DNA of 64,000 bases from Octopus sinensis (lineage: Eukaryota): the NCBI RefSeq assembly GCF_006345805.1, contig NC_043022.1, positions 11,656,001 to 11,720,000 of the forward strand. Direction: 5' to 3'. Shown piece by piece: positions 2,084 through 58,663 of the stretch. The translations under genes and the position numbers were made by a program. Numbering within the stretch: the stretch's first letter is position 1; the number at the start of each line of letters is the position of its first letter. The notes under the pieces are model-generated. The model saw only the letters and a program-made list of their open reading frames with translations, made no database searches and was not told the origin of the DNA.

Positions 2084-2473
2084 CTGGGTGCTTATAATGG
2101 ATGCAATCATAGCTGAGTGATTCAGAAGTTTGCTTTGCAATCATGTGGTCCTTTATTATTTAAACTAGTCTTCTCCAGCCCAAATGTCCTTATGTTCAAA
2201 CCAGCCAGATCCAGCCTCATACACCAACCCTACAGTGTCAATCTAACAATTATATCATTGAAATCTCAAAGCTATAAGATAATGCATGATTAATTAAAAA
2301 CAATACATTTGATAGAATACTAAGAATGCTATCGGGTTATAAAAGGATTTATTTCCCATGACTTAGATGTGCAATGACATTACATGAATGTTTCCTTCTT
2401 TTGGGTTTTGCAGTAAAAACTTAAGGTTTCCCTTTCTCTCCTTGCTTCTCACAATTGTTTATTTTCTCTTCAG

Positions 2474-2745
2474 GGCAAGTACAAGCTATTATTAGGGACT
2501 GTAATGATAAGACATTTTCATTCTCCATGGAACATCCACCATACAAAAAACTTGAAACTGTTGATGGGAATTACAACATTTCTGTGTGCTCTTATGTTAC
2601 CTCTCTAGGAGCAATACTGTGCATTTCGTTGTGCAATGAAGACATGTGCAATGGCATATTTGGCAAATCAGATTGCATTACATTGAGCTTACCACTATTT
2701 GTCATATCATTACTTTCAGTGAAGCGACTCACAAACTTCAGTTAA
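2474..2745 (+). CDS. Ly6/uPAR three-finger gene A, proximal terminal exon 3a (C-terminal half of LU domain plus hydrophobic tail)
   Basis: Pyrimidine tract and ttcag acceptor (AG 2472-2473), phase 1. Translates (G)QVQAIIRDC-x28-C-x10-C-x3-C-x4-CNGIFGKSDCITLSLPLFVISLLSVKRLTNFS*, with the LU terminal CN motif and an NIS sequon. Paralog at 51406-51677. The upstream exons lie outside the window. Confidence 0.88.
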
Positions 2746-3177
2746 CTCTTTAATCATTGTCAGTCCTACCAGCCATGATTTCAATATTAGTTCACAGACG
2801 TTGTTTTCCACATTTTATTGGTTTATATTAAGGGTATTTATTTAATTGACACCAGAAAGATTAACAGTAAAACCTGTAGGATGGCAATGAAGAAGAAGAA
2901 AAATACTAAACTATTGTCAGCTTCATTACAAATTCAAATATTATCAAATAAAATAAACCTGTCATACTTTAAAGAAAGAAACAAAGACTTGACAAAAGAA
3001 TGGACAAAGAATGGATTGAAAGAAGGAAGAAAGAAAGACAAAGAGTTTTGTTGAGTTCAGTTTGTCATCACATTCATTCACAATATAAAGATAAAACAGA
3101 GTCATCTGGCTTTCTACATTCAAAGGTCACATCCTGTCATGGTCAACTGTACCTTTCTTCCTTTCCAGAACCTATAA

Positions 3178-3194
3178 AATAAAGAATCAATAAA
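3178..3194 (+). promoter_or_regulatory. Candidate polyadenylation signals for exon A3a
   Basis: Two AATAAA (3178-3183, 3189-3194). The A/C paralogous similarity ends about 55 nt downstream. The same signals occur at 52123-52139. Confidence 0.5.
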
Positions 3195-3267
3195 ATAATA
3201 GAGCCATTTTAATTGACTCTCTCTCACACCTGCTATCAAAATTCCTGGTTTTATGCCTGTATTAGAA

Positions 3268-12656: not shown

Positions 12657-13235
12657 TTGTGCATATATGTCTGTGTGTGTGTGAATGTATGTGTCTGTGT
12701 GTGAGCATGAGTGTGTGTGTGTGTGAGAGAGAGAGAGAGTGTGTGTGTGTGTGTGTGTATGCGTATGTGAGTATGTGTCTGCACCAGAGTGCGTGCATGT
12801 GTATGTGTGTGTGTGCATATACATGTGCATGTGTGTTTGTCATGTTTGCATGTGTGGTTACTGATATGCAAGCAAATATTCCTATGCATCTATCTACATC
12901 TCTTTTCCTTTTTCCTTTTCCCCACCAGGTGAGATATTCAGCATCATCAGAGACTGCAACCAGCAACAGTTCTCATTCAACACTGGCCTCAATAAATACA
13001 AAATCTTCCAATACCTGAATCCATCCAAAAACACCACACTGTGCACAATCAGTGGCTGGTCCCTTATCTGTGTCACCATGTGTGACACAGATATGTGTAA
13101 TGCTCCATCCAAAGGCCATCAGCCAACATCTGTCACTGGACTTTGGTTCCTGACCATTCCACTTTCCACCAGCATCAGTTGGTTCTTTTAATGAAAACTG
13201 CCTACATATTCTACAAATAGTGAATACATACATAC
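11267..13235 (+). repeat. Segmental duplication blocks around exon 3b (copy 1; copy 2 at about 56067-58710)
   Basis: 11267-11355, 11670-12262 and 12870-13235 match 56067-56155, 56160-56903 and 58345-58710. Confidence 0.9.
12929..13191 (+). CDS. Ly6/uPAR gene A, distal alternative terminal exon 3b (not in ORF track)
   Basis: Strong acceptor tcttttcctttttccttttccccaccag, phase 1. Translates (G)EIFSIIRDCNQQQFSFNTGLNKYKIFQYLNPSKNTTLCTISGWSLICVTMCDTDMCNAPSKGHQPTSVTGLWFLTIPLSTSISWFF*, with 5 Cys, CN and a GPI-like tail. Paralog at 58401-58663. Confidence 0.88.
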
Positions 13236-14229: not shown

Positions 14230-14514
14230 CATACATACATACATATTTATAGGACAAGGTAGAAAATGGTAAAACGATTTTATTATGAAGAACATTTTGG
14301 TACCGGTTTCAGCCTTTGCGACTTTTTCAACTTAGAGTAAAGCATGAAAAATATTAAATGAAATGACTTTTTAAGATATTTCAATAGTATACAAATACTT
14401 GGTACATTTTCCTTTTTTCTGTCTGTCTGTCTGTCTGCCTGTCTCTCTCTCTCCCTCTCTTTTACTTTGTGAAGGCTTGGTAGGTATGTAGTAGCAGTCT
14501 AAAGAAATATTTGT

Positions 14515-15628
<1,114 letters not shown>

Positions 15629-18495: not shown

Positions 18496-18550
18496 ATGTC
18501 GGCTCAAGGCTTACATTGGTTTGTCATACCTTTATGTCTTCTAATATCAG
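18496..18550 (+). CDS. Ly6/uPAR gene B, first coding exon (signal peptide)
   Basis: aaaacATG start, MSAQGLHWFVIPLCLLIS plus G, donor CAG|gtaaga, phase 1. Joins the 22253 exon in frame to give ...LLISVLRVTSLQC. A possible upstream acceptor ccttgcag ends at 18455. Confidence 0.8.
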
Positions 18551-22252: not shown

Positions 22253-22429
22253 TTTTGCGTGTCACCAGCCTACAATGTTTTCATTGTTCCAGCTCAGCTC
22301 CTGGTTCCAAATGTGAAACGGGTGTTAAGGAATTTGCCAAGTACAACAATTCTAAATTTGCACAAAACTGTTCTGACTACAGTTTTAAAGGCAAAGTTTT
22401 CTGTGCCATTGAAACCAAACATGTCAATG
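22253..22429 (+). CDS. Ly6/uPAR gene B, exon 2 (N-terminal half of LU domain, Cys1-5)
   Basis: ttgcag acceptor and ATG|gtaaga donor, 177 nt, phase 1-1. Translates (V)LRVTSLQCFHCSSSAPGSKCETGVKEFAKYNNSKFAQNCSDYSFKGKVFCAIETKHVN(G), with the LxCxxC start typical of LU domains and spacing C-x2-C-x8-C-x18-C-x10-C. Confidence 0.9.
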
Positions 22430-28611: not shown

Positions 28612-28868
28612 GTAAGAGTTCATATTTGATTAGAGAATGTTCTGATGGAAACACTAAGAACTTCGAGAGTTTCCGCAAATTACGATACCTTAATCCTGAA
28701 AAAAACACAACACTATGTACCTTTATCAATGGCATATTTTGTTTGACAATATGTGAAACAGATTTTTGCAATGGTCCTCAAAGTATGGCTGTGATAAATT
28801 CACACACACCTGCGTTGGTCATTACTTTAGCAACAGGCATTTTGGCTTTGTTGCAGTCATACTACTAA
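28612..28868 (+). CDS. Ly6/uPAR gene B, proximal terminal exon 3a
   Basis: Poly-T tract and ctcttag acceptor, phase 1. Translates (G)KSSYLIRECSDGNTKNFESFRKLRYLNPEKNTTLCTFINGIFCLTICETDFCNGPQSMAVINSHTPALVITLATGILALLQSYY*. Spliced product is about 162 aa with a 10-Cys LU domain and GPI-like tail. Confidence 0.9.
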
Positions 28869-36662: not shown

Positions 36663-36895
36663 GTGAAGTTAAAGCAATCATCAGAAGTTGTAGTGACGGA
36701 ACATACCCTTTTGTTAAAAACGTATCATTTACAAACAAAACGGTTACAATGAATGGTTTGAGTGTAAGATTTTGCCAGGAGTCATTTTGTAATGGAATTT
36801 CTAGTGCCCAAAGCTTGCTGCCAGATCATCTCTTCACACCATTTCTTCTTTACATGATAACCACTTTGATCACTTCAGCTCTTAATACTACTTAA
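36663..36895 (+). CDS. Ly6/uPAR gene B, distal alternative terminal exon 3b (not in ORF track; lacks one Cys pair)
   Basis: Long pyrimidine tract and ttctag acceptor, phase 1. Translates (G)EVKAIIRSCSDGTYPFVKNVSFTNKTVTMNGLSVRFCQESFCNGISSAQSLLPDHLFTPFLLYMITTLITSALNTT*, with the IIRxC and CxxxxCNG motifs and a hydrophobic tail. Confidence 0.85.
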
Positions 36896-42815: not shown

Positions 42816-42858
42816 ATGGTTCCTGCATGGTCTGTTCTCATTACCTTTCTTCTAACAG
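42816..42858 (+). CDS. Ly6/uPAR gene C, first coding exon (signal peptide)
   Basis: acaATGG good-context start, MVPAWSVLITFLLT plus G, donor CAG|gtaact, phase 1. Joins 46829 in frame to give ...FLLTVSTSNGLFC. Confidence 0.75.
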
Positions 42859-46828: not shown

Positions 46829-47005
46829 TTTCAACCAGCAATGGTCTGTTCTGCTACAGTTGTGAAGGAAGCCAACCTTTTTCAAAATGTGAATCAGATA
46901 TAAGGGAATACAGACGGGGAATGGATTCAAAGTTTGCAGTAAACTGTTCTAAATATTCACACATGAAAGAGCCATACTGTGGAATTGAAAGATACATGAA
47001 AAATG
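46829..47005 (+). CDS. Ly6/uPAR gene C, exon 2 (N-terminal half of LU domain, Cys1-5)
   Basis: tttcag acceptor and ATG|gtaagt donor, 177 nt, the same length as gene B exon 2. Translates (V)STSNGLFCYSCEGSQPFSKCESDIREYRRGMDSKFAVNCSKYSHMKEPYCGIERYMKN(G), with identical Cys spacing and shared SKCE and SKFAxNCSxYS motifs. Confidence 0.9.
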
Positions 47006-48519
47006 GTAAGTTGAATATATATCCACTAGATGCAACAACAGTAGTTTTTTAACATTTAATTCTCCTTACTTCAGACTGTCTGACTGACAACAGGTGCCAC
47101 ACTTACTGTATTTTCCTACATACAAGTCAAAAGTTTTCTGACCATAATTTACAGCCAAAAAGGGTAGACCAACTTTACACCAAGACGACTTTGGTGGAGC
47201 AAACATTCCATGTGAAATGCTGCAGGATTTGGAAAAACAGTGACAATGTTTGAATGTTCACACCACATGTGTACACAACATACTATGTTGACTTGTATAG
47301 CAAAAAACAAGGTACATCTGCATACATATGTATGCGTGTTGTGTGCTCACACACCACGCGTGTATTATATTTTCTGGTATACAAGTCAAATATTTCAGGC
47401 TAAAATTAACAATCAAAAATGGCAGGTCAATTTATACATCAAGTTAACTTTGAAGAACTAAGAGTTTTATGTGAAGGGCAGCAGGATTTCGAAAGACAGT
47501 GATGAAGCTTGAATGTTTCCACTGTATACTACGTTGACATGTATGCTGGAAAATACAGTAGGTTGTTCTTTTCTTTAAGGTTTAATAAGAGGAGAAAAGG
47601 TACCCCACACCCTCTCACTAACAATGACTCTTCTAAAGGTTTCCATGACTGATGTGAGAAAGGGAAGAATTATCCCTGACTTGAAGCCTTGCTCAAATGC
47701 TTGCAATGGAGTGGACCCCACTAAAGGTACTGAAAAGCCAAGTGGTGGTTTTGAACTAGGTGGAGAATTGGGTTTGCCACTCATGCTCCTCAAAGGAATA
47801 TAAATACTGGGTTAATTATATTGATAACAATTAGCCACAATGCTAATATTATGCCCCTTGGTAAAGCACCTAACTTTGCTTCAGTATGCCTCACTAGTAA
47901 TACTGTCTGCCATTCAACCAACTTCATTAAATAAAGGCACTGGGTAAATTTGATATGCTTAACTGTAATACTAGTATTGTGGATCTTGGTTAAGGCACAT
48001 AACTCTGCATTCTTCATTTGGCCTGGCTGACATGTATTTCCCACTCCTTGCCAGAGTAAAGTCACTAAGTAAATTTTATATAATGACTAGTCACAGTACT
48101 AATATTAAGCAAACTGGTAAGGGGAAAGAAATCCGTTTCCAGTTGTCTTTGCATCTTTGGTTATGAACTGGAAGAAGACAAGTGTTGTGTGTGTGCGTGT
48201 GTGTGTGCTCACGTATATACTTTCTTACCACAAAACCCTTTAAGGTCAAATTGTCTTTATCCTCTTAAATTGGCTTAAATTTGCAACAGTGAACAAAACT
48301 GGGGTCAACTAGTCATTTCAGTTAGGGAAGTGAAGGAAATCAGCAAAAAAATGGGTAACTGGAAGGCCCCGGGACCTGGAGATGATTTTTAAAATGAGAC
48401 TATCTGAAATAAACTCGACTGCTCTCACAAATAAGAATACTAAATTTGAGCCTGACCACTCTCAAAAATTAAGTAAAAAACAGAAAAACAATCCAGAGTC
48501 CTTGTTTGGTACCTGACCA

Positions 48520-51077: not shown

Positions 51078-51405
51078 ATTTAAACCAACCTTATCCAGCC
51101 CAAATACTCTACATGTTTTATGTTCAAGTCAGCCAGATCCAGCCTCTCTCACTTACCCTACAATGTCATTCTAAAAATAAACAATTACATCATCGAAATC
51201 TCAAAGCTATAAGATAATGCATGATTAATTAAAAACAATACATTTGATAGAGTAATAAGAATGTTATCAGGTTAAAAAAAAGATTTATTTCCAATGACTT
51301 GCGCAAAAACATTACAGGAATGTTTCCTTCTTTTGGGTTTTGCAGTAAAAACTTAAGGTTTCCCTTTCTCTCCTTGCTTCTCACAATTGTTTATTTTCTC
51401 TTCAG

Positions 51406-51677
51406 GGCAAGTACAAGCTATTATTAGGGACTGTAACGATGAGACATTCTCATTCACAATGAACAATTCACCATACAAAAAACTTAGAAAAGTTAATGGG
51501 AATTACAACATTTCCGTGTGCACTTATATTATGTCTGAAGCAGCAATACTGTGCGTTTCGTTGTGTAATGAAGACATGTGCAATGGCATATTTGGCAAAT
51601 CAGATTGCATTACATTGAGCTTACCACTATTTGTCATATCATTACTTTCAGTGAAGCGACTCACAAACTTCAGTTAA
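51406..51677 (+). CDS. Ly6/uPAR gene C, proximal terminal exon 3a
   Basis: Same acceptor as 2474. Translates (G)QVQAIIRDCNDETFSFTMNNSPYKKLRKVNGNYNISVCTYIMSEAAILCVSLCNEDMCNGIFGKSDCITLSLPLFVISLLSVKRLTNFS*. Spliced product is about 163 aa. Confidence 0.9.
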
Positions 51678-52319
51678 CTCTTTAATCATTGTCAGTCCTA
51701 CTAGCCATGATTTCAATATTAGTTCACAGACGTTGTTTTCCACATTTTATTGGTTTATATTAAGGGTATTTATTTAATTGACACCAGAAAGATTAACAGT
51801 AAAACCTGTAGGATGGCAATGAAGAAGAAGAAAAATACTAAACTATTGTCAGCTTCATTACAAATTCAAATATTATCAAATAAAATAAACCTGTCATACT
51901 TTAAAGAAAGAAACAAAGACTTGACAAAAGAATGGACAAAGAATGGATTGAAAGAATGGATGGAAAGAAGGAAGAAAGAAAGACAAAGAGTTTTGTTGAG
52001 TTCAGTTTGTCATCACATTCATTCACAATATAAAGATAAAACAGAGTCATCTGGCTTTCTACATTCAAAGGTCACATCCTGTCATGGTCAACTGTACCTT
52101 TCTTCCTTTCCAGAACCTATAAAATAAAGAATCAATAAAATAACAGAGCCATTTTAATTGACTCTCTCTCACACCTGCTATCAAAATTCATGGTTCATTT
52201 GACTATAGGCACAAGGCGTAAAATCTGAAAAGAGAGATTTTGTTTATTACATCAACCCCCTAAGTTCAACTGATACTTAATTTTGCGATCCCAAAAGGAT
52301 GAAAGACAAGGTTGACCTC

Positions 52320-58400: not shown

Positions 58401-58663
58401 GTGAGATATTCAGCATCATCAGAGACTGCAACCAGCAACAGTTCTCATTCAACACTGGTCTGAATAAATACAAAATCTTCCAATACCTGAATCCATCCAA
58501 AAACACCACACTGTGCACAATCAGTAGCTGGTCCCTTATCTGTGTCACCGTGTGTGACACAGAGATGTGTAATGCTCCATCCAAAGGCCATCAGCCAACA
58601 TCTGTCACTGGACTTTGGTTCCTGACCATTCCACTTTCCACCACTATCAGTTGGTTCTTTTAA
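58401..58663 (+). CDS. Ly6/uPAR gene C, distal alternative terminal exon 3b (not in ORF track)
   Basis: ccccaccag acceptor, phase 1. Intact ORF (G)EIFSIIRDC...NTTLCTISSWSLICVTVCDTEMCNAPSKGHQPTSVTGLWFLTIPLSTTISWFF*, with 4 aa differences from 12929-13191. Confidence 0.88.

Follow-up and report, generated by a model that had tools for sequence, protein, structure and literature searches.

Two neighbouring gene copies in Octopus sinensis raise the question of why one short stretch of a coding exon should differ strongly between them while the DNA on either side hardly differs at all. The window analysed here, by which we mean the whole stretch of 64,000 nucleotides at G000:C26:11656001-11720000, contains the last exon 3a of both copies. 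Alignment of positions 2503-2634 with 51435-51566 was free of gaps and contained 24 differences in 132 nt. Read in frame, these amounted to 14 amino-acid changes and four purely synonymous codons with every Cys kept, which are the counts that a first-pass annotation of this DNA had made by hand. Six of the amino-acid changes alter charge (K/E, E/N, E/R, T/K, D/N and L/E). The near-identity that the annotation had described for the flanks was also found, at about 99.5%: 119 nt upstream are identical, and downstream (2635-3250) the copies differ by three substitutions and one 13-nt indel, with the first 135 nt identical. The contrast between patch and downstream stretch (24/132 versus 3/610) gave a Fisher p of 3e-16 for a window that had been picked after the fact.

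The region, including 200 kb of flanking DNA, was duplicated in tandem as blocks of 60.1 and 41.1 kb, with a gene c and a gene a in each block, and one more distant Ly6/uPAR (LU) gene lies upstream. Gene a starts with a signal exon, continues with exon 2 and has 3a and 3b as its two last exons. By identical database proteins, exon 3a belongs to LOC118760862 (P0001) in copy 1 and to LOC115224789 (P0002) in copy 2. The features are as follows, in window positions except for the first line:

G000:C26 about 11633504 and 11649022-11649198: exons 1 and 2 of copy 1, upstream of and outside the window
2386..2504, plus strand: run of 119 nt identical to copy 2, made up of 88 nt of intron and 31 nt of exon 3a; putative conversion tract
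2474..2745, plus strand: exon 3a of copy 1 (LOC118760862), with the C-terminal half of the LU domain, hydrophobic tail and stop; phase-1 acceptor
2505..2634, plus strand: divergent patch of copy 1, residues 84-127, lying between the Cys of RDC and that of LCN
2635..3250, plus strand: LU domain end, tail and 3′ UTR of copy 1; putative conversion tract
12929..13191, plus strand: exon 3b of copy 1, alternative last exon; protein about 34% identical to 3a
18496..18550, plus strand: exon 1 of gene c in the second block, a neighbouring LU gene
22253..22429, plus strand: exon 2 of gene c in the second block, which served as an internal control pair
28612..28868, plus strand: exon 3 of gene c in the second block, with a 12-nt in-frame deletion relative to its twin upstream of the window
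36663..36895, plus strand: orphan last exon d, a shortened LU half without two Cys, in the second block only
42816..42858, plus strand: exon 1 (signal peptide) of copy 2; 0 of 43 nt differ from copy 1
46829..47005, plus strand: exon 2 of copy 2, coding for the N-terminal LU half and holding the second peak of divergence
47130..47560, plus strand: decayed dispersed-repeat intron tract; putative conversion tract
51406..51677, plus strand: exon 3a of copy 2 (LOC115224789), joined to an a-type exon 2 in RNA-like contigs
51437..51566, plus strand: divergent patch of copy 2, carrying an N-glycosylation sequon
51567..52195, plus strand: copy-2 counterpart of 2635..3250 (LU domain end, tail and 3′ UTR), near-identical to it
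58401..58663, plus strand: alternative last exon 3b of copy 2, which differs from that of copy 1 by 7 nt and 4 aa

AATAAA-type hexamers were located at 2947, 3178 and 3189 in the 3′ UTR stretch of copy 1. No exon-2-like piece was found between 3a and 3b, and in database isoforms, from the two loci of O. sinensis as well as from O. bimaculoides, exon 2 is joined to either 3a or 3b. Through this choice one gene would yield two LU domains with a common first half and second halves about 34% identical. Exon d has an intact frame and acceptor, lacks part of finger III and has no twin in the upstream block; gene c may use it as an alternative last exon. Database models P0002 and P0006 (O. sinensis) join exons 1-2 of gene c to exon 2 of gene a, as do P0004 and P0009 in O. 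bimaculoides, giving one and a half LU domains. These models reflect either conserved read-through or an annotation error common to both species. The distant upstream LU gene (L003-L004, about G000:C26:11599100-11601560) has an exon 3 without one finger-III Cys. Downstream of the cluster, at about 77.5-100.7 kb in window numbering (L011-L013), lies a tandem array of units of about 1.3 kb, mostly 96-99% alike, that stops at an assembly gap. A simple, self-complementary repeat of about 1.1 kb occupies window positions 14500-15600.

Both gene a proteins have ten Cys in a pattern ending C-x4-CN, seven of them invariant and three nearly so among 42 relatives; relatives found by sequence were molluscan wherever named. 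Reading of the splice sites gave gene a three exons with phase-1 introns. In the predicted structure model (pLDDT 90.4), the exon junction at residue 74 sits at the tip of the central hairpin, with strand 64-72 before it and strand 75-84 after it. VIA ranks 1-34 were three-finger folds throughout, the best being GPIHBP1 (Z 7.9, below 8; rmsd 3.1; 77 aligned), and the top rows of Foldseek showed the same fold, none reaching E 0.001. The best Pfam family over the whole profile was Quiver (PF17064 QVR), at 22.8 and 21.4 bits (E 2e-4). Since neither copy reached the gathering cut-off of 27.3 bits, yet E was 2e-4 over the whole profile, we call the proteins Quiver-like and not members of the family. 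In the Atlas, 27 of 30 matches were QVR clusters (best score 0.94). A Pfam search with the exon 3 pieces alone returned no relevant match, and a PDB sequence search gave weak LYPD6 matches only (E 0.021 and 0.057). The 3a protein has a hydrophobic N-terminus and a C-terminal hydrophobic stretch, and its tail could be a short membrane helix. Cys pattern, fold model and structure matches agree in classing the predicted products as two tandem Ly6/uPAR (Quiver-like) three-finger paralogs of O. sinensis, in line with the three-finger reading of the first-pass annotation.

Both versions of exon 3a were recovered from reads. The copy-2 stretch was present, whole or in part, in 20 of 24 listed runs, and read contigs were examined in eight: X16, X17, X18 and X20, DNA-like ones among them, and four RNA-like runs. 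From each of X16 and X17 (DNA-like) came a pair of contigs of 190 nt, one showing 0 and the other 24 differences; the depths within each pair were equal (47.4/47.9 in X16 and 9.4/9.8 in X17), and depth over the tail common to both copies was double in X16 (90.5); X18 and X20 yielded only a copy-2-type piece. As both versions stand at equal depth in read contigs, an assembly or polishing artefact was rejected. All four RNA-like runs, a label that is a program's guess supported by the splice junction, no listed run being recorded as RNA, contained both versions, with the intron uncovered and a loose end matching the end of exon 2. RNA editing was set aside because the differences are genomic and the RNA-like contigs match the DNA versions. 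A pseudogene was likewise rejected, since both versions are spliced and have intact frames, splice sites and Cys.

Among close relatives the patch kept its protein sequence. No amino-acid difference was found in either copy's patch across the covering runs of labels A, B and D, which are organism labels of the runs, older Asian samples possibly bearing another species name. O. vulgaris model P0003 equals copy 1 over exons 2 and 3a; a search for copy 2 among annotated O. vulgaris sequences had no result. The patch is thus stable in close relatives rather than hypervariable. In organism-B runs (X6, X10 and X14), the copies agree at two sites that differ in the reference, window positions 51405 and 51566. 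One of these is silent (51566) and one is Ala/Gly (Ala at residue 66), the rest of the patch being unchanged; they are either new mutations or recent small conversions.

The first-pass annotation had read the patch as accelerated, mostly non-synonymous divergence confined to exon 3a. The confinement was disproved by exon 2 of the gene a pair, which shows a peak of its own (17 nt and 11 residues in 58 codons), while the other LU exons of the block, those of gene c and exon 3b, carry 5-9 differences and no comparable peak. The excess of non-synonymous changes also disappeared on counting, as 18 of 24 differences (75%) is the share expected by chance (71-76% of sites). Five adjacent-doublet changes were counted, the number that chance gives (p 0.42), and clusters of multi-nucleotide mutation were rejected.

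A pairwise version of the codon-model check that the annotation had called for gave no dN/dS above 1, whether by counting, by maximum likelihood (ML) or after a split into conserved and variable sites. For the patch, dN/dS was 0.91-1.23 by counting and 1.05-1.20 by ML in a pairwise codon model (grid interval 0.45-3.9, p 0.75-0.93), values that come from two sequences only, with low power, in a window picked for its divergence. Over the whole LU domain it was 0.62-0.83. When sites were split by conservation in 40 relatives, scaffold sites gave 0.09-0.22 and family-variable sites 0.85-2.28, with a best p of 0.12 among 36 fits. The scaffold is held by purifying selection, and divergence in loop codons with the scaffold kept is one part of the original description that stood. 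Positive selection on the loops may have occurred; the data are compatible with it and with its absence. In gene c, all seven differences of the exon 2 pair are non-synonymous and the exon 3 pair differs by a 12-nt in-frame indel; its LU dN of 0.055 and dS of 0.023 give a dN/dS of about 2, which is not significant (p 0.22-0.33; about 1 in one of four fits).

Synonymous sites bear directly on a reading that extends the one in the first-pass annotation, by which a young duplication with a background of about 4% was followed by a positive-selection burst falling chiefly on copy 2. The patch dN of 0.22, about six times the background of 0.038, and the six charge changes with a new sequon agree with such a burst, but the rise is just as large at synonymous sites. 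The dS was 0.19-0.21 in the patch and 0.16-0.20 over the whole LU domain, four to five times the 0.038 per site (212/5559) of alignable unique non-coding DNA. Purely synonymous codons numbered 8 of 112 in the LU domain versus 4 of 233 in other paired coding segments (Fisher p 0.022), and LU synonymous changes exceeded the 0.038 rate (Poisson p 0.007-0.025). With synonymous sites equally diverged (dS about 0.2), the reading of accelerated, mostly non-synonymous change is not sustained. An age of 4% also fits poorly with the block as a whole, most of which is unalignable.

Divergence along the block is a mosaic. Only 11,655 columns could be aligned between the 60.1- and 41.1-kb blocks, and a sensitive search covered 15-53% of the shorter partner in six of six intron or spacer pairs. 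Non-coding divergence was over-dispersed: 96 overlapping windows of 132 columns had a mean of 3.7 differences and a variance of 18.5. Identical runs, counted on ungapped columns without tandem repeats or LU codons and thus possibly bridging indels, extended at the longest over 399, 393 and 304 columns, lengths reached in 0 of 2000 shuffles. In the intron tract at 47130..47560, which consists of decayed repeats 75-84% identical to other genomic copies, a single difference in 431 nt separates the twins; in decayed repeat such identity is unlikely to come from constraint. Old dispersed-repeat pieces that are 99-100% identical between the twins were seen across window positions 47130-47900. At both exon 2 and exon 3a, identical tracts come in from both sides and end at the loop codons. 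Near-identical tracts thus flank both peaks, the homogenised flanks that the first-pass annotation had itself named as telling against diversifying selection.

That annotation had also offered gene conversion, with another paralog as donor of the patch. A tract imported from a third, more distant paralog would have the sharp edges and raised dS that are seen, and the donor may since have been lost. In the genome, however, exon 3a has only two DNA matches, a search for a third a-type exon 2 found none, the other cluster exons are 29-45% identical in protein, and read contigs hold only two versions at 80% likeness or more. The import would moreover be needed in both exons. We consider this origin of the patch extremely improbable.

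A plainer account also begins from an old duplication with conversion, and holds that the loops were missed by chance, then became too unlike to convert and drifted under relaxed constraint. Conversion is patchy in any case: unique non-coding windows range from 0 to 18 differences per 132, and most intron DNA is unalignable. The dN/dS of the family-variable sites (0.85-2.28, best p 0.12) is not distinguishable from 1, and the loops vary between species too, copy 1 and P0009 of O. bimaculoides being unlike at 7 of 59 residues. Chance would, however, have had to spare two exons 4-9 kb apart, with each peak bounded on both sides and once within one exon. None of 96 unique non-coding windows exceeds 18 differences. 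The absence of amino-acid differences in the patch across labels A, B and D and in the O. vulgaris copy-1 protein likewise sits badly with relaxed drift. Set against an unconverted level of 13%, 24/132 is marginal (p 0.055), four of 150 non-coding windows, all in dispersed repeats, have 24 differences or more, and the tests at hand do not separate selection from chance escape. We regard chance escape as a serious candidate, though on balance an improbable one.

The age of the duplication was approached through O. bimaculoides, which has two a-type exon-2 sequences, P0009 and P0011. At residues 29, 46 and 47, copy 1 goes with P0009 and copy 2 with P0011; residue 61 gives the opposite grouping. 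The four informative exon-2 sites therefore divide 3:1, with 0 grouping the two O. sinensis copies together; these are four amino-acid sites, in protein only, and P0011, a partial and unplaced model of 75 residues, may be an allele or have arisen by a separate duplication. The O. sinensis/O. bimaculoides split is placed at about 34 million years in bioRxiv 10.1101/2023.05.16.540928. Since the two O. bimaculoides types sort with copy 1 and copy 2, the duplication likely preceded that split and would be over 30 million years old. The signal and tail behave differently: 0 of 44 residues differ between the paralogs and 6 of 44 differ from O. bimaculoides (p 0.026; one tail and one signal). In exon 3b and in gene c exon 2, the twins agree with each other against the single O. 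bimaculoides sequence at four sites each. A second O. bimaculoides exon 3a was sought among its proteins and not found. Given an old duplication together with a near-identical signal, tail, UTR and repeat tract, the flanks were likely homogenised by conversion, and the loop codons likely show the true age of the duplication.

The same comparison bears on a burst in copy 2. When exon 3a is polarised on P0009, copy 2 has 10 changes of its own and copy 1 has 2 (p 0.039); in exon 2 the private changes number 5 in copy 2, 2 in copy 1, and 1 and 0 in the O. bimaculoides types. P0009 may be a copy-1 ortholog, however, in which case the 10 v 2 count is inflated and cannot be read as copy-2 speed. With P0011 as a second sequence in O. 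bimaculoides, fast evolution limited to copy 2 becomes less credible, and residues specific to each copy also occur in that species. Copy 2 may still be somewhat faster on the exon-2 counts, which old twins under conversion would allow. A young duplication with a positive-selection burst we judge distinctly unlikely.

The shared residues could also be explained if P0009 and P0011 were alleles. Old balanced alleles of one gene would then have been fixed side by side by unequal crossing-over, dS would be the age of the alleles, and site 61 would be accounted for by recombination. That history leaves the unalignable intron DNA across a multi-gene block of 41-60 kb unexplained, and it could dispense neither with selected loops nor with converted flanks; we find it very hard to credit.

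The explanation that we favour, and hold with moderate confidence, is that these are old tandem twins under ongoing conversion whose loop codons are kept apart by selection for two surfaces. The Ly6/uPAR twins were likely duplicated before the O. bimaculoides split, and we infer, on strong indications, that they keep copying DNA onto each other wherever homology persists. The signal peptide, splice flanks, tail and 3′ UTR would thereby stay near-identical. Selection would likely remove those conversions that erase the two surfaces, so that the loop codons of exons 2 and 3a escape. Selection may therefore act here as a barrier to conversion and need not have driven a burst of amino-acid change. 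Several points weigh against this explanation: gene c and exon 3b went through the same block duplication without a peak; finger II, which is needed in Sleepless binding, is invariant between the twins; and the age is drawn from four sites and P0011, with one site disagreeing, and from one O. bimaculoides tail and signal.

The 25 changed residues lie at family-variable positions (p 5e-5). By Cys spacing, and with finger names that we assign by presumed analogy with CD59, they are distributed as 6 of 32 residues in finger I, 3 of 10 in the linker, 1 of 19 in finger II, 8 of 28 in the family-specific insert at 84-111, 5 of 12 in finger III and 1 of 10 at the end, plus residue 22. Residues 67-85 are the same in all five compared sequences, and finger II adjoins the putatively converted intron ends. 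The changes E93N/H94N/P95S create an N-x-S sequon at 93-95 in copy 2 that copy 1 does not have. In fly Sleepless, loop 2 alone is required for channel and receptor binding (PMC4735452). From this requirement and the sameness of finger II we would guess at a docking finger common to the twins, with differing side surfaces.

By analogy with Quiver/Sleepless and Lynx1, both proteins are predicted to be lipid-anchored modulators of a surface receptor or channel, and their choice of partner is predicted to differ through finger I, the 28-residue insert (with its sequon in copy 2) and finger III. Other three-finger proteins act in gamete recognition according to PMC8830517, and by the same kind of analogy the octopus twins may do so too. 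For invertebrate members, PMC13719153 gives an average of 83 per mollusc genome and describes their function as not known. If selection is the barrier, the two peaks mark partner-choice surfaces in a molluscan three-finger family and provide a 25-residue natural contrast for a binding test. A wider reading, which we offer as speculation that is probably wrong as one joint claim, makes the cluster a small combinatorial recognition system in which N-half exons have been spliced to differing C-half exons (3a and 3b; c3 and d) for >30 My, with selection parting only the exon-2/3a surfaces of the twins. If true, one locus would tune several receptors or partners through three-finger proteins built from common halves.

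A literature search that lay mostly outside subscription journals returned nothing on the locus, its protein ids or the cluster; cell-atlas marker tables could list the genes. In general layout the twins resemble known LU genes, which according to PMC6600238 have three exons, phase-1 introns and intron 2 at the loop-2 tip. The octopus genes are like those of GPIHBP1, Lynx1, LYPD6 and CD59 in exon layout, ten Cys, CN motif, exon-3 hydrophobic tail, gene cluster and fold. Unlike those proteins, the octopus domain is about 113 residues long, with finger I partly helical and 28 inserted residues separating Cys 6 from Cys 7, and gene a has two alternative last exons that give two C-terminal halves. 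Quiver/Sleepless, which regulates Shaker channels and nicotinic receptors (PMC4735452), stands for the best Pfam family of the twins. The score lies below the cut-off, and orthology, like any action on those targets, is at most a possibility.

In snake venom families (three-finger toxins and PLA2), exons diverge faster than introns. The octopus twins are like snake three-finger toxins in having the same fold and coding sequence that is more diverged than its flanks. They are unlike them in that dN/dS is not above 1, a hydrophobic C-terminal tail is present, and the patch is free of amino-acid change among the sampled close relatives.

A closer parallel is the divergence peak under conversion, represented in PMC3924837 and PMC2588116 by the Teshima-Innan model, human red/green opsin exon 5 and the Drosophila transporter pair CG18281/CG17637. 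The opsin and fly pairs share with the octopus twins a tandem arrangement, one that in the octopus is probably as old as the pattern asks, near-identical introns and flanks, a local coding peak and copy-specific residues common to two species. The octopus twins show two peaks, in two exons of one small domain, and a difference in function is for them a prediction. Those papers set their peak against neutral simulation and flat ortholog divergence; the octopus peaks come from comparison of the two copies. The twins are a fresh example of this established divergence-peak pattern and do not prove that evolution has been fast in the manner of toxins: an exon can be more diverged than its flanks without evolving fast, and here it is the flanks that have likely been reset.
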